DNA of 63,627 bases, filler included, from Reclinomonas americana ATCC 50394 (GCA_048213135.1; 12 parts of 9 records of this genome joined end to end with filler, not necessarily neighbours in it), one strand, 5' to 3'. Shown: positions 1-18,859, counted from the first letter of the whole stretch. Made by a program: numbers and translations. Notes: generated by a model not told the origin, from the sequence alone.

Positions 1-784
1 GAATGGCAAGGGACAGACGGAGAGTTAATGAGTGGACAGGAGGGTGAGAAAGAGAGACAAGAGCAAGACGCATTTTTTCGCAAATGCGTGGAATAAGGGA
101 AGAAAAAAGAGCTTGAGAGAGTGTGTGCATGAGAGAGAGCAAGAGAGAGCGAGGGACAGAGACGGAGGAAGGGGGAGAGTGACAAAGAGCACGAGGTTCG
201 TTCGCGATCGCTGGCTACTGCTCATTGTTTGTGGTGGTCAGTGAAATAAGTGGAGAAGCAAAGAACACGAGAGACTGCTAGCGACAAGGACAACGAAAGA
301 GTCACAAGGAGAGGCGCGAGAGAAGAAGGGCTGAAGCAGAGAGCAAGGAAGACTGATCATTCTCACGCAGTGGACCTGGTGAAAGAAGTGGAGCGGAAAA
401 CATGAGTGTTCGCGAGAGACAAAAATGATGGAAGGAGTCAGAAGGAGAAGCACGAGAGAAGCAGTGCGCAAGGATAACTGAGAGGGAGATCATTCTCTCG
501 CAGCGGACCATGTGAAAGAAGTGGAGCAGAAAACATGAGAGTTTGAGAGACAAGAACAGCAATAAGAGTGACGAGGGGAAAGGAGAAACAGGGGCTCACA
601 CTGAGAAAAGGATGATTGAGAAGGAGATCATTCTCATGCAGCGGGCCTTGTGAAAGAAGTGGAGCAGAGGACATGGGGATTTGAGAGAGAGAAGAACAGC
701 ACAAATGGGTGACGAGGAAAGAGAGAAGACAGAGCTGAACAGAGAGAAAGAATGACAGAGAGTGACTGTTCTCATGCAGCAAAC

Positions 785-2689
785 CTTGTGCAAGAACGCC
801 ACGGCCTCAGCCAGTCCGAGACCAATCTGCACACGCTGCACGACGGTGAGTGGTGCCTGACCGGCACGCGGTAGCAGCAGCAGATCCTCCAGGTTGGGAA
901 CTCTGCGTGCTTTCACAGTGAGATGATGAAGGGCCAAGAAGGAGGGAAAGTGGAGAACGCACTGCAGGGCCTTGTACACGAGACAGCGTGCCTTGTCGTC
1001 GCCCACCGAGTAGCCGACGAGAGGCACAATGCGACGGTCACGCAGTCGACCCAGGGTGGCGACCTTGTGAGAAGGAACGAGGATGAGGAGAGACAGGGAG
1101 AGAAGAAACAGAAGAGAGGGAAAGTAAGACCTCACTCTCAAACGACTCCATTGTCCACGGTGCAGTGGGGTCGAGCACCTTGATGGCCACGTGCATCTCG
1201 CGAAGCAGAGAGATGAACACGGCACCCTGACCACCTTCACCGACCTTGAGACGGGGGGAGAATGAGTCGGTGGCGAGCACGATCTCGGGCCACTCAAAGC
1301 GCTGCACCGCGGTGTCGACTGTGGAATGAGAGGGAAGGGAGTGAGACATACGCAACAAAAGAGGACATGCGGAGGGAAGAGATGCAGACCTTGGGCGAGG
1401 AGGAGTTCTTGTCGGAGTTGGGAGACGAGTTGATCTCTTTCTTGAAGCTGTACGGCGAGGTCGTCCTTGTCGCGGAGTGCCACAGTCAGCTGGGAGGCGA
1501 TTCGATCCCTCTCGGCTTGCAGTTGGGCATGCGCTCGCTGTCCCTCAGCATGCGCTTGCTGCCATTGCGTCACGGCTTGATACAGTTGGACCACTTGCTG
1601 GTGCTCTGCGGCATGCGCTTGCTGGAACTGGGTGACTTGCTGTTGCAGCTGGACATTCTTCCGCTCCTCATCGACCTTGCCATGTTGCAGTTGAGCGTTG
1701 GATTGCTGCAACTGCGCCACAATGTCCTCGTGCTCTCGTCGCTGCCGATCCCACTCTCGCTGTTGCTCTTCACGCTCCTGCTGCGCTGCAGCGAGATCGC
1801 GCTGGAGCTGAGCATTCTGACGAGTCACGGTGTCGACGTCGACAACCTGGACAGAGAGGGAGAAGGAGAATTAAATGCAGATAGGAAGTGGATGACTCAC
1901 GAACAGAGTCAGCCTCACCTGGTGTGGCGGCACTGTGTGTTGCGCAGGGCGATACACACAAATGGAACAGTGTGAGAAGAAAGAACACCAGCTGAACAAC
2001 ATAAGGGCAACCAAACCTGCAGGTGGAGGAGGTGGGGGCGATCGCGCCTGTACATGTTGCTGTTGGTGACGTGGATGCGCTGGCTGCGCAGCAAGGCGCT
2101 CGAGCAATTCGGCCAGTTGCTGATTGCGTGCCACCTGAGGTGCCGTCCAGCCCTCATTGTCGACCATGGGAATGAGGTCGGGGAAGCGAGTGGCGAGGAG
2201 TCGCACAATGGCTTCGTGGCCCCTCTCGGCAGCCTTGTGCAGTGCTGTTTCACCGTAGTTGTTCACCGCCCGCACTATCTCCGGCGGACAGCGTCGCTCA
2301 TCGGCCAGCAACCACTCCACCACTTGCAGCTGGTCATAGGCGGCAGCCATCAGCGGTGTCCAGCCATCGTCGTTGACCATTTGCGCGAGTTGTGGCCCAA
2401 CACCACTCTCCTCCCACAAATATGCCAACACAGAGAGATGGCCTTCGCAAGCGGCCCAGTAGAATGCCGAGGCGCCGTATTTGTCCATCTCCTCTCTCTT
2501 CAGCAGTGTCTGTGCGCCCTCACTCGCCACCAACTCGCGCAGTCCCCTCACGTCACCTTCCATCCCCATCCCCCATGCTCCAATCCTCGGTTGCTGACTG
2601 CCAGTTCAAACAGAAACACAAACAACAAGATTGAGTGCGTTGATGAGATGCCTTCTGACAGCAACAAGACGCACACAAACACACCTCAC
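785..2689 (-). CDS. Ankyrin repeat - coiled coil - RLK/Pelle/IRAK-like kinase, copy 1 (spliced; 3' kinase exons lie beyond the window start)
   Basis: ANK motifs (GWTPLMAAA, GETALHKAAERGHEAIVRLL), Q-rich coiled coil, then FEWPEIVLATDSFS..KVGEGGQGAVF..VAIKVL..FESEVATLGRLRDRRIVPLVGY..RVQIGLGLAEAVAFLHK over GT-AG introns. The position of the paralogs' first-exon ATG is GTG here (2689), so the start is uncertain. Confidence 0.85.
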
Positions 2690-2776
2690 TCTTCTCAAGC
2701 CGGAATCCAGCAGGGACTCTTGCACATACAGACACAGCACAGAGAACTGCCTTCTCCCCACCCTGCCTTTGCCGAG

Positions 2777-2809
2777 TTCTTCCGCGTGTCCTGTTTCATG
2801 GCGGACGAT
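2777..2809. promoter_or_regulatory. Conserved upstream element of the ANK-kinase genes (TTCTTCCGCGTGTCCTGTTTCATGGCGGACGAT)
   Basis: 33 bp identical to 12120-12152, with close variants at about 6277-6305 and 9016-9045. Always about 80-110 bp upstream of the first exon. Confidence 0.55.
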
Positions 2810-3053
2810 TCTGCAGAGATGAAGCAGGCGACGTTGCGTGCCCTGACTCAACCACCACCCTTTTTGCATCTTGGTAAACCGTGACCTCATTCGTGTACCG
2901 CCAGGGGTCAGCGGTCACGGAATGTCATCGGGTGGCGATACAAGGTGAGTGGAAGGCATCATAGTGCCAAACCGCTCATTCCAGGGGTTGAGAGTTGTTG
3001 CTTGGTGCTCGGCGACGGTGTGCCAAACCCCCCTTCTCCTTCCCTTCTTTCAC

Positions 3054-6000
3054 TCACAACTCCATCGTAAACTGCCCACACGCCTCACGAATGACCCGCA
3101 TCCTGTCGAGCACCTCCAGCGCCGTCGGCCGGTCTCGTCGCACACCCATGCACTGCATACCGAGCTCGAACATTGGCTCGGCGATGCGCGGAGTCCACTC
3201 CACGCTTCCATCCACCAGCTCCATGACGCGCAGCGACTCTGGCGACTCGTCCCAATCCAGAGACCACTCGCCCACCGTCACCATCGGTTTGGCGGTGACC
3301 AGCTGCACGAGTACCACGCCCATGCTGTACACGTCGTGCTTGGGCAGTGGACGCCGGGCGCGGAAGGCCAGCGGGTCCATGTAATCAAGCGTGTCAGCGA
3401 CGGCGGTCGACTGCGAGAGGTGAGTGAGTGAGAAAAAGGGAGTGAAAGAAGAGAGACGGAGAGGAAGACCAAACCTTGTCTCCAGCAGTAGATCGCGCAA
3501 TGCCAAAGTCACCAAGGCATGGCTCGAAGCGGTGATCGAGCAGCACGTTGGCGGGTTTGATGCCGCGGTGCACCACATCATTCTGGAGAGTGGATCGAAA
3601 GGGGAAAAGAAGTGAGGGAAGGATCAATAACGAAGAGCACGACAAGCGACGAGGCGTGTTGCGCGTGGAAACAAGGCTGACGGAGAAAGGAGAGTAAATG
3701 AGCGAGCAGGAGGAAAGGAAACGAGAGAGAAAGAGCAGAACACTTGGCGAAGATATTGTTGAAAGAGCGCGAGAGAGTGTATGCACGAGAAACAAGCACA
3801 GAGTGTGTGCGGGACAGAGACGGAGCGAGGGGGGGGTACGACAAAGAGCACGAGACTCTCAACGATCGCTGCCATGGCCACACATTATTTGTTGGTGGTC
3901 AGTGAACTAAAGTGGGGCAGCAGAGAACACGGGAGACTGCAAGCGACAAGAACAACGAAAGAGTCAGAAGGAGAAGCACGAGAGAAGAAGTGAGCAAAGA
4001 AGGCAGAGATAAGTCTCATGCAGCGGCCCTTGTACAAGAAGTGGAGCGGAAAACATGAGTGTTCGCGAGAGATAAAATGATGGAAGAGACAGAAGGATAA
4101 GCACGAGAGAAGCAGTGCGCGATAACTGAGCGGGAGATCATTCTTACGCAGCGGACCTTGTCGAAGCAATGGAGCAAGAGAACATTAGGGTTTGCGAGGG
4201 ACAAGAACAGCACAAAAGAGTGACAAGGAGAAAAGAGAAGAGAGAGAAAAAAGAAGAGAGAAGGAAAGACAAAGTGTGACAGTATTCACATGCAGCGTGC
4301 CTTGTGCAAAAACGCCACGGCCTCGGCCAGTCCGATACCAATCTGCACACGCTGCACGACAGAGAGTGGTGCCTGACTGGCACGCGGCAGCAGTAACAAG
4401 TCTTCCAGGTTGGGAACTCTGCGTGCTTTCACAGTGAGATGATGAAGGGCCAAGAAGGAGGGAAAGTGGAGAACGCACTGCAGGGCCTTGTACACGAGAC
4501 AGCGTGCCTTGTCGTCGCCCACCGAGTATCCAACGAGAGGCACAATGCGACGGTCGCGCAGGCGTCCGAGGGTGGCGACCTGCGAGAAGAGGGACGAAGC
4601 ATGAGGAGAGACAGGGAGAGAAGGAAAGGAGATGGAGACACAGACCTCACTCTCAAACGACTCCATCGTCCACGGCGCTTCGGGGTCGAGCACCTTGATG
4701 GCCACGTGCATCTCGCGAAGGAGAGTGGTGAACACGGCACCCTGGCCGCCTTCGCCGAACTTGAGCCGGGGTGAGAATGAGTCGGTGGCTTGCACGATCT
4801 CGGACCACTCGAAACGCTGCACGGCACTGTCGACTGTGGAATTAGAGTGAAGGGAGTGAGATTTGGGAAGATGAAAGAAAGTGGAAAAACATGCAGACCT
4901 TGAGCAGGGAACAGTTCCTGTCGGAGCTGGGAGACGAGTTGATTGCTTTCTTGAAGCTGCGCAGCGAGATTGTCCTTGTCACGCAGAGCCACATCCCGCT
5001 CAGCCTGCAGTTGGGCGTTCGCCTGCTGCTCTCTCGCGTGTGCTTGCTGCCATTGCGCGACAGCTTGTTGCAGCTGGGTGTTGATCTCCTGCTGTTGAGA
5101 AACTTGTTGCTGCAGCTGAGCATTCTTCTCCTCCTCAACGATCTTGCCACGCTGCAGCTCAGCATTGGCTTGCTGCAGCTGGGCCACGATGTCCTCGTGC
5201 TCTCGTCGCTGTCGATCCCACTCTCGCTGTTGCTCTTCATGCTCCTGCTGCGCAGCAGCGAGATCGCGCTGGAGTTGAGCAACCTGACGAGTCACGGTTT
5301 CGTCGTCGACCACCTGGACAGAGAGGGAGAAGGAGAATGTAATGCAGATACGAGATTGATGACTCACGAACGAGTCAGCCTCACCTGGTGTGCTGGCACT
5401 GCGTGTTGCGCAGGGCGATACACACAAATACACACGTGGAACAGTGTGAGAAGAAAGAACACCAGTTGAACAAAAACAGGCAACCAACCTGCAGGTGGGG
5501 GAGGTGGGGGAGATTGCGCCAGTTGTTCTTGTTGTTGTTGACGAGGTGGTACAGGTTGCGCAGCGAGGCGGTCGAGCAACTCGGCCACCTGTCCATAGAG
5601 GTTGTCGCGTGCCTCTTGAGCTGCTGTCTTGCCCCTCCTGTCGACCGCCGGAATGAGGTCGGGGAAGCGAGTGGCGAGAAGTTGCACAACGTCCTCGCGG
5701 CCATTCGCGGCAGCATAGTGTAGTGCAGTGTCACCGTCGTTGTCGCTCGCCCGCACCATCTCTGGCGGACAGCGTCGCTCATCGGCAAGCAACCACTCCA
5801 CCACTTGCAGCTGGTCATAGGCGGCAGCCATCAATGGCGTCGCGCCGCCATTGGAGATCATTTGCGCGAGCTGTGATCCGACGCCACTCTCCTCCCACAA
5901 ATACTCCAACACAGAGAGATGGCCATAGGCAGCGGCGTAGTGGAATGCCGAGCTGCCACGCTCATTCATGTCCTCTCTCTCCAGCAGAGTACGGGCGCCT

Positions 6001-6173
6001 TCGCGAGCCACCAACTCGCGCAGTGCCTTCACATCGCCATCCCTCCCCATCTCCCATGCTTTCTTCCTCTGCTGCTGACTGCCAGGTTAAACAAAACCAC
6101 AAACAACGAGAGAGTGAGTGTGTTGAAACGCTATTCGGACAACACGTACAAGACACAAACAAGCACACCTCAT
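3054..6173 (-). CDS. Ankyrin - coiled coil - RLK/Pelle-like (pseudo)kinase, copy 2, complete
   Basis: Exons reconstructed by eye: ATGAG (6173-6169), ANK exon 6078-5489, 14-nt exon 5398-5385, coiled-coil exon, three N-lobe exons, 3582-3475 (VVHRGIKPANVLLD..GDFGIAR), 3410-3054 (DTLDYMDP..DVYSMGVVLVQLVT..RPTALEV, stop TGA). Confidence 0.88.
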
Positions 6174-6432
6174 TCTTCCCAGGCAGAATCCAGCAGAGAG
6201 CACTCGCACACAGAGACAAGCACAGAGAGCACTGCCTTCTCCCCGGCCAAGATGCTGTGAGAAGGGACGACGGTTTTCCCGCGTGTCCTGTTCTTGGCGG
6301 ACGATTCTGTGGCGACGTTACTTGCACTCACTCAGACCACCACATTTTTCAGTATCTTGGTAAACCTTGACCTCATTCGTGTGCCACCAGGGGCCCACGG
6401 TCAAGAGATGCCACTGGATGTACATGTGCGAC

Positions 6433-6532
6433 NNNNNNNNNNNNNNNNNNNNNNNNNNNNNNNNNNNNNNNNNNNNTTAATTAATTAANNNNNNNNNNNN
6501 NNNNNNNNNNNNNNNNNNNNNNNNNNNNNNNN
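6433..6532. other. Assembly gap linker (N-TTAATTAATTAA-N, 100 nt); the same linker recurs at about 18747, 22176, 24902, 31960, 38425, 41054, 44506, 51421, 54235 and 58759
   Basis: Identical six-frame stop linker embedded in Ns. Genes (carrier, RNase H1, PAP2, CHD) continue across it, so these are gaps inside a scaffold. Confidence 0.95.
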
Positions 6533-7053
6533 GAATGGCAAGGGACAGACGGAGAGTTAATGAGTGGACAGGAGGGTGAGAAAAGAGAGACAAGAGCAAG
6601 ACGCATTTTTTCGCAAATGCGTGGAAGAAGGGAAGAAAAAAGAGCTTGAGAGAGTGTGTGCATGAGAGAGAGCAAGAGAGAGCGAGGGACAGAGACGGAG
6701 GAAGGGGGAGAGTGACAAAGAGCACGAGGATCGTTCGCGATCGCTGGCTACTGCTCATTGTTTGTTGGTGGTCAGTGAAATAAGTGGAGAAGCAAAGAAC
6801 ACGAGAGACTGCTAGCGACAAGGACAACGAAAGAGTCACAAGGAGAGGCGCGAGAGAAGAAGGGCTGAAGCAGAGAGCAAGGAAGACTGATCATTCTCAC
6901 GCAGCGGGCCTTGTGAAAGAAGTGGAGCAGAGGACACGGGGATTTGAGAGAGACAAGAACAGCACAAATGGGTGACGAGGAAAGAGAGAAGACAGAGCTG
7001 AACAGAGAGAAAGAAAGACAGAGAAAGAGGAAGACTATTCGCATGCAGCAAAC

Positions 7054-8910
7054 CTTGTGCAAGAACGCCACCGCTTCGGCCAGTCCGAGACCAATCTGCA
7101 CACGCTGCACGACGGTGAGTGGTGCCTGACCGGCACGTGGCAGAAGCAACAGATCCTCCAGGTTGGGGACCCTGTGTGCTCAACAGTGAGATGATGATGG
7201 AAAAGAAGAAGGAAAGAAAGAGACATGAACACGCACTGCAGGGCCTTGTACACGAGACAGCGCGCCTTGTCGTCGCTCACCGAGTAGCCGACGAGAGGCA
7301 CAATGCGACGATCCCGCAGGCGTCCGAGGGTGGCGACCTGCGAGAAGACGGACGAAGCATGAGGAGAGAGAGGAGATGGAAAGGAGATGGAGACACAGAC
7401 CTCACTCTCAAACGACTCCATCGTCCACGGCGCTTCGGGGTCGAGCACCTTGATGGCCACGTGCATCTCGCGAAGCAGAGTGATGAACACGGCACCCTGA
7501 CCACCCTCGCCGATCTTGAGACGGGGCGAGAATGAGTCGGTGGCTTGCACGATCTCGGACCACTCGAAACGCTGCACGGCAGTGTCGACTGTGGAATGAG
7601 GGGGAAGGGAGTGAGATTTGGGAAGATGAAAGAAAGTGGAAAAACATGCAGACCTTGAGCAGGGAACAGTTCCTGTCGGAGCTGGGAGACGAGTTGATCT
7701 CTTTCTTGAAGCTGTACGGCGAGATTGTCCTTGTCACGAAGCGCCACAGTCAACTGGGAGGCGATTTGATCTCGCTCGGCCTGCAGTTGGGCGTTCGCCT
7801 GCTGCTCTCTCGCGTGTGCTTGCTGCCATTGCGCGACAGCTTGTTGCAGCTGGGCGTTGATCTCCTCCTCAACGATCTTGCCACGCTGCAGCTCAGCATT
7901 GGCTTGCTGCAGCTGGGCCACAGTGTCCTCGTGCTCTCGTCGCTGTCGATCCCACTCTCGCTGTTGCTCTTCACGCTCCTGCTGCGCAGCAGCGAGATCG
8001 CGCTGGAGCTGAGCAACCTGACGAGTCACGGTTTCGTCGTCGACCACCTGGACAGAGAGGGAGAAGGAGAACTTAATGCAGATACGAGATTGATGACTCA
8101 CGAACGAGTCAGCCTCACCTGGTGTGCTGGCACTGCGTGTTGCGCAGGGCGATACACACAAATACACACATGGAACAGTGTGAGAAGAAAGAACACCAGT
8201 TGAACAAAAAAGGCAACCAAAAAACCTGCAGGTGGCGGAGGTGGGGGAGATTGCGCCAGTTGTTCTTGTTGCTGTTGACGAGGTGGTACAGGTTGCGCAG
8301 CAAGGCGGTCGAGCAACTCAGCTACTTGTCCGTAGAGGTTGTCGCGTGCCTCTTGAGCTGCTGTCTTGCCCCTCCTGTCGACCGCCGGAATGAGGTCGGG
8401 GAAGCGAGTGGCGAGGAGTTGCACAACGTCCTCGCGGCCATTCGCGGCAGCATAGTGCAGTGCAGTGTCACCGTCATTGTCGCTCGCCCGCACCATCTCC
8501 GGCGGACATCGTCGCTCATCGGCCAGCAACCACTCCACCACTTGCAGCTGGTCATAGGCGGCAGCCATCAATGGCGTCGCGCCGCCATTGGAGATCATTT
8601 GGGCGAGCTGTGATCCGACGCCACTCTCCTCCCACAAATACTCCAACACAGAGAGATGGCCATAGGCAGCGGCGTAGTGGAATGCCGAGCTGCCACGCTC
8701 ATTCATGTCCTCTCTCGCCAGCAGAGTACGGGCGCCTTCGCGAGCCACCAACTCGCGCAGTGCCTTCACATCGCCATCCCTCCCCATCTCCCATGCTTTC
8801 TTCCTCTGCTGCTGACTGCCAGTTTAAACAAAACCACAAACAACGAGAGAGTGAGTGTGTTGAAACGCTATTCGGACAACACGTACAAGACACACACAAG
8901 CACACCTCAT
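7054..8910 (-). CDS. Ankyrin - coiled coil - RLK/Pelle-like kinase, copy 3 (3' exons lost in the gap at 6433-6532)
   Basis: Same exon architecture as copy 2. The ANK exon is nearly identical to copy 2. ATGAG|gt first exon at 8910-8906. Confidence 0.85.
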
Positions 8911-9735
8911 TCTTCCCAGGCAGAATCCAGCAGAGAGCACTCGCACACAGAGACAAGCACAGAGAGCACTGCCTTCTCCCCGGCCAAGATGCTGTGAGAA
9001 GGGACGACGGAGTTTTCCCGCGTGTCCTGTTCTTGGCGGACGATTCTGTGGGCGACGTTGCTTGCACTCACTCAGCCACCACACTTTTCAGTATCTTGGT
9101 GAACCTTGATCTCATTTGTGTGCCACAAGGGGCCCACGGTCACGGGATGCCACTGGATGTACATGTGCGATNNNNNNNNNNNNNNNNNNNNNNNNNNNNN
9201 NNNNNNNNNNNNNNNNNNNNNNNNNNNNNNNNNNNNNNNNNNNNNNNNNNNNNNNNNNNNNNNNNNNNNNNNNNNNNNNNNNNNNNNNNNNNNNNNNNNN
9301 NNNNNNNNNNNNNNNNNNNNNNNNNNNNNNNNNNNNNNNNNNNNNNNNNNNNNNNNNNNNNNNNNNNNNNNNNNNNNNNNNNNNNNNNNNNNNNNNNNNN
9401 NNNNNNNNNNNNNNNNNNNNNNNNNNNNNNNNNNNNNNNNNNNNNNNNNNNNNNNNNNNNNNNNNNNNNNNNNNNNNNNNNNNNNNNNNNNNNACCGGGG
9501 CGATCGAACAAAACGAGTGGGAGGCATCATCCGCTCACTCCAGTGGTTGAGAGTTGTCGCTGGGTGCTCGGCAAGCAAGAGGAGAAGGTGGCCAAAGCCC
9601 TCTTGTCCTTCGCCAGATTTCACTCAAAGCTCCAAAGTGAACTGCCATCATGTGCCAAACCCCTTCAGTGGTAGAGAGTTGTCGGTGAGTGCTCGGCGAT
9701 CAAGACACGAGGGCTTGTTAACAGGCCCCTTACCT

Positions 9736-9890
9736 TCAGCTGCTTTCTCTCACAACTCCGACGTGAACTGCCCACACCCTCGCGAATGGCCCGCATCCTG
9801 TCCAGCACCTCCCGCGCCGTAGTTCTCTCGTCGCACACTCATGCACTGGCTCGGCGATGCGCGGCGTCCACTCCACATCTCGCCGACAGT
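9736..9890 (-). pseudogene. Degenerate remnant of the last kinase exon of copy 4
   Basis: VEWTPRIAEP matches copy 2's last exon and is followed by a deletion/frameshift. The 3' flank (about 9510-9790) resembles copy 2's 3' flank (about 2940-3060). Confidence 0.7.
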
Positions 9891-10337
9891 TGCGCACTCC
9901 ACGAAACGTAGTTAGAAGGAGCAACAAGGGAAGAGGAGAAAAACGATAAAGAAGTAACCAGTCGCATGTCTTGTCGAGAGTAAGTGACCCTTGAACGACT
10001 CTTGGGTTCAAGGATTCCACCTTCCACAGTGTAACAAGAGAGCAGAGCACTTGGCAGGCAGCAGAGAGGACTCTGACCACCTCCCTTGCCATTCGCTCCC
10101 TCCCTTCTCCCTCCTCTCCCTCCTCTCTCCTCCACTCCATCCCAGGCCGCGACCCATCGCCATTCCCTCCAGCCCGACAATCGCCTCACGAACCACCACT
10201 GCTCACCTTCCACAACCTCCTCATCCACATCCCCATAAACCTACAGGCGACACGACAGTGGAAACCTGCCCAACGCTTCACTCGCAACGTCGACAACTTG
10301 CTGAAAAAGATTGATTCGAGACACACTCCGCACTTGC

Positions 10338-11267
10338 TCACTGGTCGCTTCCCCTTCCTTGTGCATGCTGAGCGATTGTTTCTTTGCAAACCCAGATAAA
10401 GTGAGGACGAGGCACGGGAAACGAGAGAGTGCGAGAGACGAACACACCCTGCGCACGAGCGAGATCCTCCCGAAGCTGCGCCACGAGTTGATCCCTCTCC
10501 CGCAACTGCGCGGCGAGATCGTCCTTCTCACGCAGTGCCGCCGCCAGCTGTGCGTCGAGTCGATCCCGCTCAGCCTGCAGCTGGGCGACTCGCTGCTCCT
10601 CTGTGCCCTGCCGCTCCTGCGCAACAACAATTTCGCGTTCCCGTCGCTGCTCCTCCACCTCCCGCTGCTGCTCCTCACACTCCAGCAGCGCGGCGGCAAG
10701 ATCCCGCTCCAGTTGCGCAATGACTGCATCCTTGTCGATAGCCACCTTGCGCACAAGCGAGAATGAGCGAAATGCTGAGACAAATGAGGGAGCAGAACAT
10801 CCGTCTCACCTGCTGGCGTGCTGGTGCTGCGTTGTTCCAGAGAGGCGACACACGAAGCACAGAAGTGAGCAGGAAGAGAGCGCAGAACAACAAAGGGGGC
10901 GGGGACAACGAAACGACAAGCAGCAAGTGAGAAGTGAGCAGGAAAACACAGGAGAGACCACGCCTGTTGCAAAATGGACGGCACACGGAATAGCACACAG
11001 AGAATGAGAAAGAGAAAGCACAAAAGCGCCAAAGACAGCACACTCTCTGCACAGGGGCGACACGCGTAACAACAAGCAGAGACAGAGAAGCGAGCAGCAA
11101 GAGATCACACATGCAGCAGGAGGGCGACACATGAGACAAGCGGAGAATGAGAACTATGCAGGAAGTGAGTGCAAAACGCAGAAGAGAAAGCGAGCAGGAA
11201 GAAAGCGCACACCACGCGCAGAAGAGAGCACACCTGCTACATACGGGCGACACACGAAACAACAAGC

Positions 11268-11298
<31 letters not shown>

Positions 11299-12040
11299 AA
11301 GGGAAGTGAGCAGGAAAACAAGCAAGAAATCACACCTGCTTGAGCCGGAGGAGGAGGAAGAGGTCGCGGCTCTTCCCGACGCTGCTGCCTCTCCTGCTCT
11401 CGAGGCTGCTGCTCCCGCTCCCGCTGCGGCGCCAAACCCTCCAGCACCTCCGCCACCCGCACCTTGCCATTCACACGCGCCTGCTGCGCCGCCGTCATGC
11501 CCGCCTTGTCGACCATCGCCACCAGCTCAGGAAAGCGAGTGGCAAGCAGGCGCACAATCTCCTCATGCCCATTCATGGCCGCAAAGTGCAGCGCCGTCGA
11601 CTGATCATCTCTCGCCGCCGCGCGCACCATCTCCGCCGGACACCGTCGCTCCTCGGCCAGCAACCACTCCACCACCTCCAGATTGCGATTATACGCGGCC
11701 CTCATCAGTGGTGTCCACCCATAGTCGTCGACCAGCAGTGCCAGTTGCTCGCCGACTCCGCTCTCCTCCCACAGGTACTGCAGCACCGCAAAGTGGCCGC
11801 CGTTGACGGCAAAGTGGAAGGCCGAGTCGCCCCAGTCGTTCATCTCCTCTCGGCGCAGGAGGGTGTGGGCGCCCTCGCGTGTGACCAGCTCGCGCAGTGC
11901 GGGCACGTCGTTTTCCCAGGCCAGTTCGTGGGCTTTCTTGCGGGTGCTAAAAAGAGAGGAGAGAGAGTGAGGGGAAAGGGAAAGGGAAAGAGGAGGGAGA
12001 GAAAGGGAGAGAAAGGGAGAGAGTCGCAGACAAACCTCAT
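10338..12040 (-). CDS. Ankyrin - coiled coil protein, copy 4, lacking an intact kinase domain
   Basis: ATGAG|gt (12040) spliced to STRKKAHELAWENDVPALREL.. ANK repeats, a 17-nt microexon (10826-10810) and a coiled-coil exon. Probable stop at 10338. Confidence 0.7.
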
Positions 12041-12140
12041 GGTGTTGATGTTGAAGACGGGGGGAAACAGCAGCAACTCGCACACGCTCGTCTGCTATCA
12101 CAATGCCTTCTCTTACGTGTTCTTCCGCGTGTCCTGTTTC

Positions 12141-12453
12141 ATGGCGGACGATGACGAAGGCGACGTCCTGCTTCCACCCCTACCCTTACACAACAATTCT
12201 TCTCGTCTTTTGCACACACACACACACACAATGCACAGACGTGGCTCTCAAGAGATTGTTACTAATCTTTCAAACTATCTGGCGAAACCGATAGCGCCCT
12301 TCGCCGTCTCCGGCTCGTTCCACCACACCGCGCCGATCGTGCTCAGTCACGTGCAGTCGGGTACTGTGATCGCGCTCGGCCAGTCCACCGAGGCCGAGCT
12401 GGAGACCTTCTTCCAGCTGTGTCGACCCGCCGGCTTTGGTCGTGGCACCGAGA
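12141..12453 (+). CDS. 5' part of a putative 2OG-Fe(II) oxygenase-family protein (runs into gap)
   Basis: ..PFAVSGS..ELETFFQLCRPAGFGRGTE resembles the 'C.PA.FG.G.E' motif found N-terminal to fungal/protist 2OG-Fe(II) oxygenase domains. Start uncertain (12141 or 12231). Confidence 0.45.
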
Positions 12454-13408
12454 NNNNNNNNNNNNNNNNNNNNNNNNNNNNNNNNNNNNNNNNNNNNNNN
12501 NNNNNNNNNNNNNNNNNNNNNNNNNNNNNNNNNNNNNNNNNNNNNNNNNNNNNNNNNNNNNNNNNNNNNNNNNNNNNNNNNNNNNNNNNNNNNNNNNNNN
12601 NNNNNNNNNNNNNNNNNNNNNNNNNNNNNNNNNNNNNNNNNNNNNNNNNNNNNNNNNNNNNNNNNNNNNNNNNNNNNNNNNNNNNNNNNNNNNNNNNNNN
12701 NNNNNNNNNNNNNNNNNNNNNNNNNNNNNNNNNNNNNNNNNNNNNNNNNNNNNNNNNNNNNNNNNNNNNNNNNNNNNNNNNNNNNNNNNNNNNNNNNNNN
12801 NNNNNNNNNNNNNNNNNNNNNNNNNNNNNNNNNNNNNNNNNNNNNNNNNNNNNNNNNNNNNNNNNNNNNNNNNNNNNNNNNNNNNNNNNNNNNNNNNNNN
12901 NNNNNNNNNNNNNNNNNNNNNNNNNNNNNNNNNNNNNNNNNNNNNNNNNNNNNNNNNNNNNNNNNNNNNNNNNNNNNNNNNNNNNNNNNNNNNNNNNNNN
13001 NNNNNNNNNNNNNNNNNNNNNNNNNNNNNNNNNNNNNNNNNNNNNNNNNNNNNNNNNNNNNNNNNNNNNNNNNNNNNNNNNNNNNNNNNNNNNNNNNNNN
13101 NNNNNNNNNNNNNNNNNNNNNNNNNNNNNNNNNNNNNNNNNNNNNNNNNNNNNNNNNNNNNNNNNNNNNNNNNNNNNNNNNNNNNNNNNNNNNNNNNNNN
13201 NNNNNNNNNNNNNNNNNNNNNNNNNNNNNNNNNNNNNNNNNNNNNNNNNNNNNNNNNNNNNNNNNNNNNNNNNNNNNNNNNNNNNNNNNNNNNNNNNCTT
13301 CTCTATCTCTCTGTGTGAATATGTCTGTGTGCGTGTGTGTGAGTGGTGCTGCCTTGTCTGTGCAGGAGAGTGTGAATATGCGCTTCGTGTCTGTCTATGC
13401 TCTTCTCG

Positions 13409-13440
<32 letters not shown>

Positions 13441-13711
13441 CGAGTGATTGAGAAGCGCGAGCAGCGTTGCCCGTCTCTCTGTGCACGAGAGCGTGAGTAT
13501 GCGCCTCGCGCCTGTCTGCGTTCATCTACTCTCTCTCTCTGTGCGTGAATAGTGCTTCATCTGTCTCTCAGTCACGTTCTTACTCTCTTTCCTTCACTCT
13601 CGTAAGAGTCGTTCTTCTTTCATCTCTCGCTCCTCTACATCTCCCTACGTCTCTCCCTCCTCCCTCTCCCTCTCTCTCTCTCTCACATCTCCCTCTCTTC
13701 CATCCACTCAC

Positions 13712-13818
13712 CTGTCGACCTTGCGACGCGCCAAGTACGCAATGCCGAAGCTGCCACGACCAATCTCCTGCAGTCGATCATAGTCGAGCGAGCGGTCGCT
13801 AGTCGCCACCGACGACAT
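13712..13818 (-). CDS. First coding exon of a NEK (NIMA-related) Ser/Thr kinase; remainder in gap
   Basis: MSSVATSDRSLDYDRLQEIGRGSFGIAYLARRKVD followed by a gtgagt donor; typical NEK N-terminus (Y..L..IG.GSFG.AYL). Confidence 0.7.
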
Positions 13819-14343
13819 GCTTTCTTCCTGTAAACAAACAAACACAAACACACAAACAAACACACAAGAAAATAACAAACAGAAAAAAACACATGAATGA
13901 TTGTTGTTGTTGTCGAGATCATGGCCAAACACACACTCATAACAACTGACACACAGAGACGCGCGTGCTCTTTCTCTCTCTGTGTGAGTGTGTCAGAGTG
14001 AGGAAGAGCGCGATGTCCTCACCCGCAACTGTGACTCGTTGCGCAAATTGAGCCTCCACTCAGCACGCACACTCAAACCGCTCACTTACACACACACACA
14101 CTCACTGACTAACACACACAACTATGCCACACACACAGAGACAGAGAGAGAGAGACAACAGAACACAACAGCGCGTGCGTGCGTGCGTGCGTGCGTGTCT
14201 GCGTGTGCGAGGCAGACAGAGACAAGGCAGTGGTGTCTCACCTGTGTGTATGCGCGCGCGCGTTGACTCTGAGTGTGCGCGCGTGCGGGACAGTGACAAT
14301 GCGTGACAGTGCTGCTCGCGATCGTTTTCTTTTTTGTTTGACA

Positions 14344-15935
14344 ATGGCGACATCGTTGTTGTCGCAGCGCAGCTCATCGACGCAGCAGCGACGTGCTGGC
14401 GTCAACAAGCTGAGCGATGAGTTCTCGCGAGTTGCGTCTCTCTTTGTGTGTGAGTCTTTCTTTTCTTTGTGTGTGTGTGTGCTGACTGATGTGTTTGTTT
14501 GTGTGCAGAGTCTGGTGGCGGCCTACAAGCAGAGTGTGACGCACAGGCCATCGGCCAAGTATATGTTCCGGAAGCTTGCACCGCGTGGTGGTCCGGGAGT
14601 GCCTGCTCCGACGTTGCGTGGTCAAGAAGGGGGCTTCACTGGTCTTCTTCCTCGTCCTCCCTCTTCTTCTTCTTCTTCTTATGCTTCTTGTCCTCCTTCT
14701 TCTTGTTCTTCTTGTCCTTCTTCTTCTTCTTCTCCTCCTCCTCCTCCTCCTCCTCCTCCTCCTCCTCCTCCTCCTCCTCCTCCTCCTCCTCCTCCTCCTC
14801 CTCCCTCTCCTTCTCTTCGCCTTCTTCTCATCATCTCTCTTCCCCTTTTCCCCCCTTCTTCCCCTTTGCAGACTGGCCACCCGCTGTCACGCGCGGACTG
14901 GAAGGAGTTCCTGGAGACGGTGCTTCCCAACCGCAGCCTGCGTTACTTGCCGCGCTCGGAAGTGGAGGCCGCTGAGCAGGAGCTGAGGGAGCAAGGGGGA
15001 TCGGAGGCGATGAGTGGATCTCAATTTGCGGCGCAACACATTGACTTGTAGAAGCGCTGCCCCCGAGATACACACAATCGTCTTTCGATGCCTCTCACCT
15101 TCCGCCAGCTTCTGCTCTGCCGGTCGCCGCACTACCCGATGCGCCGTCCCACGAGCACGCCTTCTCGCCATCCTCTTCGTCCACCACCACCACCACCACC
15201 ACCACGACGTCTTCTTCAAGCGCCTCGTCGCCTTCTTCCCCTATTCCCACATCATCGTCATCATCATCATCGTCGTCGTCGCTTGCTGGTGCCGGCACCT
15301 TTGTCTACCAGGAGCTGTCCACGGTTGACATGTACAAGTTTGCAGCCAGCCGTGGACTGTCGTGGGAGCATCTGCAGAAGCGGCAGCCGACGACACCACC
15401 ACCGATGTACCCCGCACCTGGACCACAGTGTGCGTATTTCCCGGTGAATCCTGTGCAGCCGCAGCATTCAATGCACCTGCCGCCACCGCCACCACCGCCA
15501 CCTCCTCCTCCTTCGGTGCCGATGCCGAGCAGCTGGCTGGGTCCGTACGTACCGCAGCCGCCACCACCACCACCATCATTCTACATCCCGGTGCATCCAG
15601 TCCCCGTGGTCCCATCGTTCAGTGTGCCGGTGTCGGCGTCGCCGTATCCTCCTGTCTCGAACGCTCCCACACCCACTCCAGTACCGTCGTCGCCTCCACT
15701 TTGGTCGCAGGTGGAGCCTCCGTATCTGCCGACAGAGGCCCTGCTTTGGCCGGCTCCGTCGCCTACTTCCTCGCAGGCTGACCAGAAAGTGGATCCTGAA
15801 CCGTTTGCGTCAGCCGCCGTTCCTGTGTACTCAAGTGACTACCTCCGGGATGACGACGGCGACGACCTCAACCTGTTGTATCCGGACCCTGTGCCCGAGA
15901 GCGACCCCGAGTTTCCGTTCCTTCTTCGTGATTAA
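14344..15935 (+). CDS. Hypothetical spliced protein with Pro-rich and acidic C-terminus
   Basis: ATG at 14344, protein-like segments (HPLSRADWKEFLETVLPNRSLRYL; DMYKFAASRGLSWEHL) flanked by plausible splice sites, and a last ORF ending TAA at 15935. Exon structure uncertain. Confidence 0.4.
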
Positions 15936-16148
15936 AATGATGTACAATGTGTGGAATCATTCACACGTCTCTTGCACTCAAAATACCAGCCCTTGTGCCT
16001 TCTGTTCCCTTTTCTTTCCCTCATTGCATATCCAGTCTCCTCTTGCATGCGCATATTTTACCTTTCCCTTCAAGAATATGTTTCCACACTCTATTCTCTC
16101 CCCATGTCTTTCTGTTGCACAATCTCTTCTCTCTGAATCATCTCTTCT

Positions 16149-18746
16149 TCACGTATTCTTCTTCAAACGAACACTTCTCCATCCGTTGCCGGCATACACA
16201 CCAAGCACTCTTTCCACCACCAGCTTCTCCATGTCGCACACATACACGGTGCCGTCGTCGCTGCAGGAGAACATGCGCCGACTGTCGGGCGAGAAGCACA
16301 CGGCCCTGACCGTCATGGTGTGACCACCATTCACATACAGTGCCGGCGCCCCTGAATCCACCACCGACTCTGCCGACATGGAGCCGTCGACACCGCCACT
16401 GGCCACCCACTTTCCATCGTTGGAGACAGCCACTGTCGTCGTCGTATCGGTATGCCCATCCAGTTTCACGTCCCTCGTCTTGGAGGCCACTGACCAACGT
16501 TCCACATTCATCCACCTACTTGCCGTGCCGAGGTACACGTATTGCGAGTCGGGAGTGAAAGCTGCGGCCATAACAAGGCTTCCACGGTCACCCAGTGTGC
16601 ACACGAGCTCACCCGTCTCCACCGACCACACCAATGCTCGCCAATCGTATCCTCCTGCACTCACGACGTACTTGCCGTCGTGCGAAATGTCCACCATCTC
16701 GACCGTTTTCCTGTGCTCCTTCATGCGGTGCCGCAACCGCAGCAGCTCGCCACCAGCGCCGGCACCACCACCGTCATCATCACCATCATCGGCGGCGACA
16801 TCGTAAACGCAAACCTCATAGTCTGGCGGTGCGCCGCCGGTGGCCACTAAGCGACCATCACGCGATACCGCCAGTACCACGCCGTCGCAGGAAATCGAAC
16901 CCAGCTGCTCTCCCGTGGCCATTGACCACAACGACAGCGCGCCACCATTATGCCACCGTTTCAGGACACACAGAGTGCACTGGCTGCCGGCCCCTTTTGG
17001 CAGCAACGCCACCTCGCCGCCGACACCGGGGAATCGTCGCACCTCCTCACCAGTGGCACACGACCACACCCGCACGACGTCGTCGTCGCCGCCCGTGACC
17101 ACATGCAGGCTGTCTGGCGTGACGGCCAGTGACGCGAACGCGGGGAACACCGCTCGCCGAATCTCGTCGCCCTGCGCCGTGGACCACACGCGAATCGCTC
17201 CAAAGAAGGAGCCTTCGTCGCCCTCGAGGCCACCGTCACTGCTGATAATGTACTGACCGTCGGGCGACACGCAGCACGCATCCAGAGAGCGAGTGTGCCC
17301 CACAAAGCATCGCAACTCTTCGCCCGTGACAAGACCGTAGACACGAATGGAGCGCCCGCGCGTTGCCACGAACCGCTGGCTGTCAGGCGAGAGGCCAATC
17401 AAGGACACACCATCAAACTTGCGCACCAGCTCGCCAGTGGTCATGGAGAAGACTGCGCGAGAGATTACTGCGTAGCGCAGATCTCGAGTGACAGTCACCG
17501 CCCCTGATCCGGCCGGCACATCACAGTGCACGCGACGCACTTCACGACCAGTGTCCACCTCCCACACCCGCACTGTGCTGTCGGTGGCGAGTGCAACAAT
17601 GTGCGCACTGCCAGGCACGATGCTAATGCACGTCAACTCTTGCTCTTGCACCTCTGCAAACCGCTCCGCATGCGCCACCTCACCCGTCTCCAGCGACCAC
17701 AGCGTAAAGCCGAGGATCATGCACTCGCCGTCGGCGGTCAGCGCCATGCTCTGGCCGGCCAGCTTGCTGCCGCGCACCTGGAATGCTCGTATAGGTGCGC
17801 CAGTGGCCGAGTGCCACACGTGAACATTCAGCTGCCGCGACAAGCTGACCACTCGCTCGCCGTCGGGTGTGACGGCGACACACGTGGCTCCGTCGCCCTC
17901 GGCACGATGCTTTTCGTACATCACGAGCCGCTTGCCATCTTGCAGCGCGAACACGTACGCATAGCCTTCCAGGCAGCTGGCAACAATGAGCCGGTTGTCC
18001 GGCGACACGACGACAGAGTTAAGCGAGTAGTTAAAGTAGTCGATTTCCCCTCGTGGCAAGCGAGCACCCGTCAAGTTGGCGCCGCAAACATCGGCCTGTG
18101 AGCAGTACGCCGAGAGCAGATTGACATTGCGCAGGTCGGCGTCGCAGAGCACCGTCTTGTGCATCACTGCATCGCGCAAATCGGCGCCGACTAGCGAGCA
18201 GTTGCTGAGATCGCGCGCACTGAACGGCACTCCAGCGGCGCACAAGACACTGGCGGCGCTGGCCGACACCACCGACAACACCGACTCATTCGCCGGTGTG
18301 CGCCTTCGCGACAGCTCAATCGCGTGCCACAGCGCACTCTGCAGCGTGGTGTCGAGTCGCACGTGCTCGGCGGCGAACGAGAGGACCGAGTTGAGGCCCT
18401 ACAAAGAAAGGGACAGCGTGACGATGGGTTCGAGAGAGAGAGGAGGGGGGGGAGAGGAAGGGCGATGAATGGTACCCACCTCGTCCATTGGCGTGAGGGG
18501 ACGCGTGCCCGCGAGACCGCCTCGGAGTCGGTCGACAGCGTCCTGTGCAGGAACCATGAGTGGTCTTGACCACAAAGACAATTAGAAAACCGAGAGATCA
18601 CCTCCAGCTGGTCGCTGTTGCCGGCGAGAATGTGCACCTCGTCCAGCCACGACTGCGCAGCAAAGTACTCGAGCACCGACTTGTGGACGAATTCGACACG
18701 CTGCAGGTGGTCGGCACGGCGGCTCCACTTGAACAGGGACTTTTTT
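16149..18746 (-). CDS. NLR-like protein: NACHT winged-helix end - pentapeptide repeats - WD40 repeats (5' truncated by gap)
   Basis: EFVHKSVLEYFAAQ (NACHT winged-helix motif F.HKS..EYF.A) at about 18650-18695, two short introns, then SVLSFAAEHV..LWHAIELS..AASVLCAAGVPFSARDLSNCSLVGADLRDAVMHKTVLCDADLRNVNL (pentapeptide) and about a dozen divergent WD40 repeats up to the stop at 16149. Confidence 0.8.
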
Positions 18747-18859
18747 NNNNNNNNNNNNNNNNNNNNNNNNNNNNNNNNNNNNNNNNNNNNTTAATTAATT
18801 AANNNNNNNNNNNNNNNNNNNNNNNNNNNNNNNNNNNNNNNNNNNNCGTCGTCGTCGTC

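Follow-up and report, generated by a model that had tools for sequence, protein, structure and literature searches.

A candidate young gene family encoding soluble ankyrin-helix-kinase proteins of predicted RLK/Pelle type in a protist

Four paralogous genes, here called copies 1 to 4, lie on the minus strand between positions 785 and 12040 of the window (the whole stretch of DNA that we analysed, 63,627 nucleotides), and with moderate confidence we read them as a small, young, recombining gene family encoding soluble proteins in which ankyrin repeats, a Pro/Gln linker, a long helix and an RLK/Pelle-type (RLCK-like) kinase follow one another. The ankyrin domain would bind a protein, with the partner varying from copy to copy, the helix would pair two chains in parallel and so bring two kinase domains together, and the kinase domain would either phosphorylate or, where the catalytic aspartate is missing as in copy 2, serve as a scaffold like other pseudokinases of the superfamily.

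An earlier note on this DNA had described four same-strand paralogues with a common exon plan, and an ankyrin exon, a Pro/Gln-rich linker and a helical exon rich in Q, A and E indeed recur in 4/4 copies (Table 1), but a whole kinase is present only in copy 2. One splice plan holds in frame across copies 1 to 4, with a micro-exon of 14 nt (17 nt in copy 4), and all length differences are multiples of 3. Ankyrin repeats are units of 33 residues arranged in tandem, and such tandem repeats are recognised in all four ankyrin exons by Pfam Ank_2 (E 4e-20 to 9e-23), with Ank_2, Ank, Ank_3, Ank_4 and Ank_5 exceeding their cut-offs in 4/4 copies. Blocks of 44 N, TTAATTAATTAA and another 44 N are contig or scaffold linkers, and the window consists of small scaffolds strung together. 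A tandem arrangement is therefore established for copies 1 and 2 only, which share one gap-free piece (1-6432), while the remainder of the proposed array of four, copies 3 and 4, sits on a separate piece (6533-18746) behind a linker.

Table 1. Positions of the genes, exons and associated elements in the window.
Feature	Position	Strand	Remarks
Copy 1, cut by window start	785..2689	-	K1-K3 only; K4, K5 outside window
Copy 1 exons	2689-2685, 2597-2017 (ankyrin), 1932-1919 (micro-exon), 1846-1390 (helix)	-	
Copy 1 kinase exons	1318-1131 (K1), 1063-963 (K2), 902-785 (K3)	-	
Copy 2, sole complete gene	3054..6173	-	nine exons, 631 aa; splice model and translation, tblastn, Pfam
Copy 2 exon 1	6173-6169	-	ATGAG
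Copy 2 ankyrin exon and Pro/Gln linker	5489..6078	-	about four repeats plus caps; Pfam Ank_2 E 5.5e-20
Copy 2 micro-exon	5398-5385	-	14 nt
Copy 2 helix exon	4899..5313	-	138 aa, 25% Gln, one Pro, one Gly
Copy 2 K1	4833-4646	-	
Copy 2 K2	4579-4479	-	
Copy 2 K3	4418-4301	-	GC donor
Copy 2 K4, catalytic loop and DFG	3475..3582	-	HRG (CAC CGC GGC) at HRD site; DFG intact
Copy 2 K5 and stop	3410-3054	-	stop 3054-3056
Copy 3, cut by contig end at 6533	7054..8910	-	K1-K3 only
Copy 3 exons	8910-8906, 8815-8226 (ankyrin), 8132-8119, 8047-7654 (helix)	-	
Copy 3 kinase exons	7588-7401 (K1), 7337-7237 (K2), 7171-7054 (K3)	-	
Copy 4, kinase-less	9770..12040	-	exons 1 to helix, K5 remnant
Copy 4 exons	12040-12036 (ATGAG), 11946-11336 (ankyrin), 10826-10810 (17-nt micro-exon), 10745-10448 (shorter helix)	-	
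Conserved upstream element, copy 1	2782..2809	-	~95 nt ahead of exon 1; no chance match in 100 shuffles
Upstream element, copy 4	12125-12152	-	28/28 identical to copy 1
Upstream element variant, one base shorter	6279-6305 (copy 2), 9018-9044 (copy 3)	-	
Contig/scaffold linker	6433..6532	.	44 N + TTAATTAATTAA + 44 N; separates copy 1-2 piece from copy 3-4 piece

Judged from its sequence, the kinase domain is of the RLK/Pelle/IRAK type, an assignment made in the earlier note that is borne out by the pre-kinase hallmark and by phmmer searches of PDB with exons K1 and K5. The hallmark of these kinases is a pre-kinase alpha-helix with an ST motif (TxxF), FSYEELEKAT[D/N]NF[S/D], as given in the available text of PMC10916322. 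In copy 2, the corresponding stretch reads FEWSEIVQATDSFS followed by PRLKF-GEGGQGAV, and FEW(S/P)EIV(Q/L)ATDSFS in copies 1 to 3 is identical to the RLK/Pelle consensus at 7/14 positions with T-D-S-F aligned. The motifs quoted earlier (the pre-kinase motif, R..I..G.A.A..FLH and YMDP) are all present, except that five residues and not four precede GEGG, and the copy 2 kinase also has GxGxxG, VAIK and DFG. With exon K5, 38/38 distinct PDB sequences at E<=0.01 were IRAK4 (26), the best match, or plant RLKs; at E<=10, the top 46 matches were IRAK4 or plant RLK/RLCK and the next was Aurora A (E 0.25). Structures of ILK and RIPK exist in PDB, and no RIPK, ILK or RAF chain occurs among the best 60 of 131 PDB matches to K5 (E<=10). 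All matches to exon K1 (15/15) were RLK, RLCK or IRAK1. Single exons match Pfam Pkinase and PK_Tyr_Ser-Thr below the curated cut-offs only (E 2e-4 to 7e-6); the spliced 290-aa kinase domain of copy 2 aligns end to end with library kinases at 30-36% identity (E 6e-41), the best matches being U-box kinases named PUB51/PUB33, THESEUS1 and proteins of Chlorokybus, Stenamoeba and Gefionella. Over the full domain, the closest matches (~34% identity) are plant U-box kinases of RLCK-IXb/PUB-VI (PUB32-35, PUB50-53; matches named PUB51, PUB33 and PUB35) and protist repeat-kinase-RING proteins, and the nearest Atlas clusters are streptophyte PK_Tyr_Ser-Thr.

In a midpoint-rooted tree of RLK/Pelle-like rows only, with no named non-RLK TKL references, the kinase stands on a branch of length 1.32 beside the U-box (RLCK-IXb/PUB-VI) clade (group SH-aLRT 82), and the nearest rows by tree path are the repeat-kinase-RING proteins of Stenamoeba and Gefionella and a Vitrella kinase. 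An AU test gave p 0.73 for a position outside the U-box/RING group, and the constrained tree was better by 9.87 log-likelihood units. The plant RLCK-IXb/PUB-VI kinases are the best BLAST matches, but the tree does not fix them as sisters of the kinase. The catalytic Asp of HRD is absent in copy 2, which reads HRG and is therefore predicted to be inactive; HRG is one base off HRD and was read in just one copy, in a draft assembly with gaps, exon K4 of copies 1 and 3 being absent from the window. That the kinase signals, as had been proposed, is accordingly doubtful for copy 2, the sole complete kinase. Among the IRAKs, IRAK2 and IRAK3 are pseudokinases.

The helix probably pairs as a dimer, and modelling supports the earlier suggestion of an oligomerising coiled coil. 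A two-copy structure prediction of the copy 2 helix scored 0.54 (best of 3 controls 0.00), a mark that was reached in calibration by 21/30 one-chain pairs and 0/23 single chains of microbes and by 17/29 pairs vs 0/30 of eukaryotes, with 1/7 among those that have no older solved relative, and coiled-coil pairings may come from model memory. The model is a parallel, in-register homodimer forming a continuous paired helix (pLDDT 89) with contacts at 3-4 spacing and like residues face to face; runs share at least 96% of contacts, with a partner pLDDT of at least 88. In a crude heptad test, the helix did not differ significantly from shuffled sequences (4.75 vs 4.40 +/- 0.28; 63/500 shuffles as high). 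The proposed lack of a membrane span and of a death domain agrees with what we found: the maximal 19-residue hydropathy is 1.39, within the kinase (the usual threshold for a membrane span is 1.6), the N-terminus is polar without a signal peptide, and Pfam on the N-terminal exons gives ankyrin families only. Copy 2 has no U-box either, as its stop codon falls at the end of the kinase domain.

Ankyrin-headed and U-box-less in design, the protein is a counterpart of plant RLCK-IXb/PUB-VI and green-algal ANK-helix-kinase-U-box proteins. The earlier note knew of no such fusion, but it has precedents: an N-terminal ankyrin domain, a helical middle and an RLK/Pelle-type kinase are combined in a soluble protein, as here, in green algae (Chlorokybus atmophyticus P0084 and clusters P0178 and P0185 with Tetraselmis striata members). 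The kinases of P0084 and copy 2 share 34.8% identity. Unlike copy 2, the algal proteins end in a C-terminal U-box, and their ankyrin domains share generic repeat similarity only with the copies here (E 4e-7 in a set of 170). Among the relatives compared, this plan is rare, occurring in 1/150 nearest library kinases and in 4/120 best relatives of P0084.

According to the available part of 10.64898/2026.02.10.704836, RLCK-IXb/PUB-VI proteins are soluble and consist of an N-terminal domain, a long alpha-helical domain predicted as a coiled-coil pair and an RLCK kinase, with some members lacking the HRD Asp and 11/20 Arabidopsis RLCK-IXb proteins lacking the U-box. Copy 2 has the same order of N-terminal domain, long predicted helix and kinase; it differs in its ankyrin head (UspA in RLCK-IXb/PUB-VI), in lacking the C-terminal U-box that PUB-VI carry and in belonging to an organism that, judged by one conserved gene, is not a plant. 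IRAK/Pelle kinases and copies 1 to 3 both have the pre-kinase TxxF (PMC10916322, available text), but the former have a death domain, whereas the copies carry ankyrin repeats and a helix N-terminally, with putative coiled-coil oligomerisation instead of death-domain assembly. Plant-type RLKs proper have a signal peptide, an ectodomain and a TM helix; by hydropathy, copy 2 has neither TM helix nor signal peptide. The Stenamoeba and Gefionella proteins and the Vitrella kinase are, like copy 2, soluble with the same kinase type and an N-terminal repeat domain, but their repeats are WD40 and most have a C-terminal RING. Ankyrin repeats are joined to TKL-group kinases in RIPK4/ANKK1, ILK, plant KEG and oomycete OS1 (available parts of PMC9573974 and PMC3019232; KEG, 10.64898/2026.02.10.704836), with RIPK4 and ANKK1 having the kinase first and the ankyrin domain last, the reverse of copy 2.

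Outside plant receptors and animal Toll signalling, reports of RLK/Pelle kinases are sporadic. Phytophthora infestans has five IRAK-class kinases, RLK/Pelle-like and all predicted to be catalytically inactive, 4/5 of which have a transmembrane segment and none of which is reported with ankyrin repeats in the available text of PMC3019232, whereas copy 2 is soluble and ankyrin-headed. None is reported for Dictyostelium (PMC1420674), and the last eukaryotic common ancestor is inferred to have had an IRAK4-like kinase (bioRxiv 10.1101/2020.01.27.920793). The family adds a soluble RLK/Pelle kinase with an ankyrin head, from a protist that probably belongs to neither plants nor animals and may be amoebozoan-like. 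It also suggests that the plan of interaction domain, dimerising helix and RLCK kinase known from plant RLCK-IXb has a greater age and modularity than one would gather from the literature on plants.

Within these proteins, it is the ankyrin domain that evolves fast, and its changes are concentrated on the binding face. Between copies 1 and 2, 43/155 ankyrin residues differ vs 10/136 in the N-part of the kinase, and dN/dS (Nei-Gojobori) falls from 0.50 in the ankyrin domain to 0.16 in the helix and 0.12 in the kinase N-part, which confirms the excess of ankyrin divergence noticed earlier; between copies 2 and 3, 1/158 ankyrin residues differs. At the canonical binding-face positions known from the design of artificial ankyrin binders, 19/24 residues differ between copies 1 and 2, compared to 24/131 elsewhere (Fisher p 1e-8). 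On the binding face, dN reaches 0.83 compared with a dS of 0.38 for the whole ankyrin domain, and pN is 0.50 against a pS of 0.30 (p 0.009), values that all come from this one pair of copies and hint at positive selection on the binding face. To our knowledge, binding positions are the least constrained sites of any ankyrin protein, so that pathogens are not needed for fast change there. Over pairs of copies, dN/dS is 0.09-0.24 for kinase N-part and helix and 0.20-0.25 for the ankyrin domain against copy 4, which points to purifying selection for most of the family's history.

The earlier note had gone further and seen in these genes, by analogy, a candidate one-component intracellular immune receptor whose variable ankyrin domain senses a pathogen molecule, whose helix oligomerises and whose Pelle-type kinase signals. 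We consider this unlikely. A rate of change at binding-face positions that exceeds the rate at silent sites (copies 1 and 2), tandem duplication with exchange between copies and the modelled helix dimer would all fit such a receptor, and RLCK-IXb/PUB-VI proteins are targets of pathogen effectors with the related ZED1/ZRK pseudokinases acting as decoys (available part of 10.64898/2026.02.10.704836). However, the window holds four copies and not a large repertoire, ankyrin dN/dS stays below 1 overall, the complete copy is predicted to be catalytically dead, and the rapid change of binding positions requires no pathogens. Less likely still is another reading by analogy, that what we see of these genes belongs to a larger, fast-diversifying family of intracellular sensors in a protist outside plants and animals. 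In it, positively selected ankyrin faces would recognise proteins that are foreign or modified-self, a parallel coiled coil would pair two RLK/Pelle-type domains, and the HRG kinase and kinase-less copy 4 would be decoys or regulators comparable to the ZED1/RKS1-type pseudokinases of plants and IRAK2/IRAK3 of animals. If true, RLK/Pelle kinases would be linked to surveillance in a third lineage of eukaryotes. With the hallmarks of a young recombining cluster and the hint of positive selection on its binding face, the family is a lead to what soluble RLK/Pelle proteins sense and not evidence of protist immunity.

Sequence has been exchanged between the copies, and copy 3 combines stretches like copy 2 with stretches like copy 1 in a mosaic. 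Down to ~7270, it is 86-99% identical to copy 2 per 100-base window (mostly 96-99%), and from ~7170 to 6533 it is 91-100% identical to copy 1 (97-100% from ~6970), with the switch point lying within a stretch that is identical in copies 1 and 2. It is possible, though we think it the lesser probability, that there are fewer than four loci and that copy 3 stems from the second haplotype of the copy 2/copy 1 region or is a chimaera of that region made in assembly, e.g., an unequal-crossover hybrid. Both the mosaic and its switch point would agree with this, the contig ends of copy 3 are homologous to those of copy 2 (upstream) and copy 1 (copies 1 and 3 are cut at homologous positions in the K3-K4 intron, the former at base 1 of the window and the latter at 6533, next to the linker), and the linker is copy 3's only join to copies 1 and 2. 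Yet copy 3 matches neither parent exactly, with 86-93% identity in some 100-base windows and a helix exon that lacks 21 nt relative to copy 2, and the same picture is expected from gene conversion between true paralogues.

Our reading as a family of four recombining copies also has to accommodate signs that part of it may be decaying. Copy 2 combines HRG with a GC splice donor downstream of K3, where copies 1 and 3 have GT, and its splice model has 7 GT-AG and 1 GC-AG introns; copy 1 has GTG where the other copies have the ATG start codon; and in copy 4, exons K1 to K4 were not found in the N-free stretch from 10448 to 9876, with K5 persisting as a frameshifted remnant only (9876-9770). That most copies are pseudogenes or nearly so, and that ankyrin divergence reflects relaxed constraint after duplication, nevertheless seems quite improbable to us: the modelled exons are open in 4/4 copies, the dN/dS values given above are low, GC-AG introns can function, and in-frame ATGs occur 11 and 13 codons further downstream in copy 1. 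The 28-nt upstream element, probably a promoter or 5' UTR, is moreover identical between the most diverged copies.

All genes of the family lie on the minus strand and follow one plan, in which an ankyrin exon, a Pro/Gln linker, a helical exon and the kinase exons K1 to K5 (5' to 3'; K4 encodes the catalytic loop and DFG motif, K5 is the last exon with the stop codon) succeed one another. When pieces of the best copy were searched by tblastn against the whole window, they recovered 4 ankyrin exons, 4 helical exons, 3 sets of K1 to K3 as well as one K4 and one full-length K5, and no further family exons elsewhere in the window. Copy 2 encodes an intact 631-residue protein from nine modelled exons, with exon 1 consisting of ATGAG and exon 3 being a micro-exon of 14 nt (17 nt in copy 4). 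The introns are short (around 56-100 nt, with two longer exceptions), CT-rich and bounded by canonical splice sites; 22 of the 23 modelled introns start with GT, while the intron after K3 starts with GC in copy 2 and with GT in copies 1 and 3. The same plan keeps the reading frame in copies 1, 3 and 4, with all length differences being multiples of three (the helical exon measures 457, 415, 394 and 298 nt in copies 1-4, respectively), and it is on this conservation of frame across diverged copies that the predicted splice model rests. Exon 1 of copy 1 has GTG in place of the ATG found in the other copies. The long intron after K3 (480-796, with counterparts at around 3900-4290 and 6780-7050) contains degenerate tandem copies, in copy 1 of a 138-nt unit repeated 2.3 times; since this unit opens with the 3' end of K3 plus the splice donor, further donor-like sites occur within the intron. 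Two contigs end within this intron.

The window is GC-rich (around 55-60% in coding parts) and contains 32 runs of N, of which 20 make up linker blocks. By this tally there are 10-11 such blocks, each composed of 44 N, TTAATTAATTAA and another 44 N; such linkers, with stops in all six frames, are used for chaining contigs or scaffolds. The window thus strings together small scaffolds of around 2.6-12 kb each, and gene adjacency across linkers is meaningless. Copies 1 and 2 are the sole pair seen head-to-tail, with around 365 nt from the copy 2 stop to exon 1 of copy 1. The simplest explanation for the lack of K4 and K5 in copies 1 and 3 lies in the assembly. Copy 4 has lost its kinase: the 572 N-free bases between its helical exon and a frameshifted K5 remnant contain no similarity to K1-K4.

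Positions of the gene copies, sequence pieces, linkers and other features along the window
Feature	Position (nt)	Strand	Remark
Copy 1	2689-785	minus	reaches window start inside K3-K4 intron
Copy 2	6173-3054	minus	complete
Copy 3	8910-7054	minus	reaches linker at 6533; end point homologous to that of copy 1
Copy 4	12040-9770	minus	helical exon ends at 10448; K5 remnant 9876-9770
First piece	1-6432		gap-free
Second piece	6533-18746		sized gaps at 9172-9493 and 12454-13297
Linker blocks	6433-6532, 18747-18846, 22176-22275, 24902-25001, 31960-32059, 38425-38524, 41054-41153, 44506-44605, 51421-51520, 54235-54334, 58759-58858		
WD40/pentapeptide frame	16152-18745	minus	large open frame
WD40-repeat open frame	41156-41713	plus	TEP1, WDR3, WDR5 type propeller models
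WD40-repeat open frames	43485-44342, 44020-44505, 44838-45956, 46092-47267	minus	TEP1, WDR3, WDR5 type propeller models
RNase H domain and RNase H1 N-terminal (Cauli_VI) domain	39526-39945 and 40085-41053	minus	adjacent open frames
AAA_11/AAA_12 helicase	26931-28049	plus	
Aralar-type mitochondrial carrier	32270-32914	minus	
SNF2-type helicase C domain	59092-59517	minus	
Chromodomain	62052-62789	minus	

Copy 3 is a mosaic of copies 2 and 1. In 100-base windows, its identity to copy 2 is 86-99% (mostly 96-99%) from the upstream region to around 7270, and its identity to copy 1 is 91-100% from around 7170 to 6533 (97-100% from around 6970). The switch point falls within around 100 bases (7172-7272, comprising the end of K2, the intron and the start of K3) over which identity between copies 1 and 2 is 100%, the kind of site where paralogue exchange resolves. 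Either paralogues have exchanged sequence here by gene conversion or unequal crossing-over, or copy 3 is the other haplotype. Upstream of the genes, around 95 nt 5' of exon 1, copies 1 and 4 share identical 28-mers (2782-2809 and 12125-12152), and a variant one base shorter is found at 6279-6305 and 9018-9044. Copies 1 and 4 are the most diverged pair, with silent sites saturated. The element probably serves as a signal in the promoter or 5' UTR, and in these two copies an ATG within it starts a short upstream ORF.

The earlier note had assigned the kinase to the RLK/Pelle/IRAK type, and the PDB matches of K5 and K1 agree with this. Of the 38 distinct sequences matched by K5 at E≤0.01, 26 are IRAK4 and the rest are plant kinases, i.e., SYMRK (2), FERONIA (4), BRI1 (4) and two chains labelled "Protein kinase" that we take to be Pto. 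At E≤10, the top 46 among the best 60 of 131 matches are all IRAK4 or plant RLK/RLCK, and the first other kinase is Aurora A (E 0.25). The matches of K1 (15/15) are LysM kinases, CERK1, IRAK1, a lectin kinase, BRI1, BIK1, BAK1 and two "Protein kinase" chains. The stretch before the glycine loop is identical to the 14-residue consensus of the hallmark motif at 7 of 14 positions, TxxF included. Similarity and hallmark motif both lend good support to the predicted membership in the RLK/Pelle family. Membership among the ILK, RAF or RIPK4 ankyrin-kinases was rejected, as no such chain is found among the best 60 of 131 PDB matches of K5, and this sets the window proteins apart from other TKL ankyrin-kinases: in the available text of the respective papers, RIPK4/ANKK1 carry their ankyrin repeats last (PMC9573974) and oomycete OS1 is an ankyrin-kinase fusion of another TKL family (PMC3019232).

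No close relative was found among 1.84 billion representatives, which gave 188 matches at E≤0.001, 7 at E≤1e-10 and none at E≤1e-30 (best 65.5 bits, 30% identity), and a homologue search with the K5 protein, directed at longer proteins, returned 232 candidates with none at E≤0.001. The spliced 290-residue kinase domain of copy 2 aligned end to end with library kinases at 30-36% identity, and its ten best full-domain matches comprise plant U-box kinases (PUB51, PUB33 and unnamed ones), THESEUS1, a Tagetes kinase, a Chlorokybus protein, two Stenamoeba proteins (Amoebozoa) and a Gefionella protein (malawimonad). In a tree of 98 rows, all RLK/Pelle-like, built by a quick method under LG+G4, copy 2 sits on a branch of length 1.32 and groups with protist kinases, i.e., Stenamoeba WD40/RING kinases and a Vitrella kinase, as well as nameless assembly proteins, adjoining a U-box kinase clade (95*). 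This grouping is weak (SH-aLRT 82), and a position outside the U-box side was not rejected by the AU test (p 0.73; constrained tree 9.87 log-likelihood units better).

The glycine loop, VAIK and DFG are all present in copy 2. In the catalytic loop stands HRG (CAC CGC GGC), one base off HRD, a feature that the earlier note did not mention and that is seen in a single copy of a draft assembly. If real, this change would make copy 2 a predicted pseudokinase, in likeness to all five IRAK-class kinases of Phytophthora (as stated in the available text of PMC3019232) and two Arabidopsis RLCK-IXb proteins (likewise in the available text of preprint 10.64898/2026.02.10.704836).

Ankyrin families scored above the Pfam threshold on the first large exon of all 4 copies. 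Between copies 1 and 2, the Nei-Gojobori method gave a dN/dS of 0.50 for the ankyrin domain (dN 0.188, dS 0.379), 0.16 for the helix (0.120, 0.751) and 0.12 for the N-part of the kinase (0.041, 0.330), so that ankyrin divergence beyond that of the kinase N-part, as described before, was borne out for this pair; in comparisons with copy 4, the ankyrin ratio is 0.20-0.25. The differences are concentrated at repeat positions 2, 3, 5, 13, 14 and 33, the ones randomised in designed ankyrin binders. With six positions in each of four repeats, copies 1 and 2 differ at 19 of 24 such binding-face positions vs 24 of 131 other ankyrin positions (Fisher p 1e-8), and 18 of 24 differ in both comparisons with copy 4. 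At the 24 codons, dN is 0.83 vs an ankyrin-wide dS of 0.38, a ratio of around 2.2 (framework codons of the domain, 0.27) that comes near 1 when the local dS of those few codons is used; pN is 0.50 vs a pS of 0.30 (p 0.009, rounded counts). In this one gene pair, the pattern fits positive selection on the putative binding face, or at least no constraint.

The helical exon is composed of 25% Gln and contains one Pro and one Gly. Pfam assigned no named domain such as MLKL_N to the helical exons, with sub-threshold coiled-coil matches only (DUF4407, HMMR_N, FPP), and a crude test of heptad periodicity was not significant (63 of 500 shuffles equally high). A two-copy structure model of this exon scored 0.54, compared to 0.00 for the best of 3 controls, with at least 96% contact agreement between runs and a partner pLDDT of at least 88. 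In calibration, the pairing mark was reached by 21/30 proteins solved as same-chain pairs and 0/23 single chains, and among eukaryotic proteins by 17/29 pairs and 0/30 single chains, with just 1/7 for those without an older solved relative. The modelled interface has 3-4 spacing along nearly its whole length and brings like residues face to face, which suggests a parallel in-register pair. The model supports pairing of the helix, with the qualification that a predictor may reproduce coiled coils it has already seen. The reading as a membrane-spanning receptor kinase was rejected, since the N-terminus is polar and no stretch of the protein is hydrophobic enough to cross a membrane.

The fusion itself has a precedent in a protein of the alga Chlorokybus atmophyticus (library entry P0084), which combines ankyrin repeats, a helical part with a weak MLKL_N-like match below cut-off, a kinase and a U-box. 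Four of its best 120 relatives combine ankyrin and kinase, 3 of these with a U-box, and 2 of those 3 are clusters in which Tetraselmis striata proteins also occur. Among the 150 nearest library kinases of K5, ankyrin repeats were found in one (P0084): Pfam found none in 45, most of them plant proteins that carry several kinase domains alongside malectin, WAK, LRR, EGF or U-box domains, and the remaining 105 were screened by jackhmmer seeded from P0084 (8 of them Pfam-scanned too). According to the available text of preprint 10.64898/2026.02.10.704836, plant RLCK-IXb/PUB-VI proteins combine UspA, a long alpha-helix predicted to pair, a kinase and a U-box, and 11/20 Arabidopsis RLCK-IXb proteins have no U-box. 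Protist relatives of the copy 2 kinase combine WD40, kinase and RING. Given these ankyrin- or UspA-helix-kinase precedents, the window proteins are a U-box-less, ankyrin-headed version of a known modular plan represented in several lineages already, and the architecture is not wholly new. What the earlier note observed was largely right, if overstated: the kinase assignment stands, and the claim of an unprecedented fusion does not, in view of the Chlorokybus protein and the Tetraselmis-holding clusters. We found no paper dealing with both RLK/Pelle and ankyrin; the fusion may still be published, e.g., in supplementary kinome tables of the cited papers.

The proposed role as a protist immune receptor family would be an analogy, for which the divergence of the binding face is one suggestive fact, while it is awkward that the sole complete kinase looks inactive. 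In the available texts, Dictyostelium is reported to be without IRAK orthologues (PMC1420674) and an IRAK4-like kinase is inferred for the last eukaryotic common ancestor (bioRxiv 10.1101/2020.01.27.920793). The WD40-repeat genes on other pieces lend no weight to the immune reading, and the search of the WD40-repeat pieces of the window yielded neither a NACHT nor an NB-ARC domain. These open frames are spread over three or four separate scaffolds and may represent a large repeat-protein family of the genome. The large frame with WD40 and pentapeptide repeats shares its scaffold with copies 3 and 4, and a motif in its upstream part (18194-18745) is NACHT-like by eye, without Pfam match. Elsewhere, the adjacent RNase H frames are probably an RNase H1 gene, and the helicase, carrier and chromodomain frames are ordinary genes. 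The source is a eukaryote with short introns, probably no plant and possibly an amoebozoan-like protist. The nearest Atlas cluster of a helicase fragment is labelled mostly Haptophyta, and the closest named proteins of the aralar-type carrier exon are amoebozoan (Luapelamoeba, 71%; Copromyxa; Amoeba proteus) as well as from Ancoracysta.
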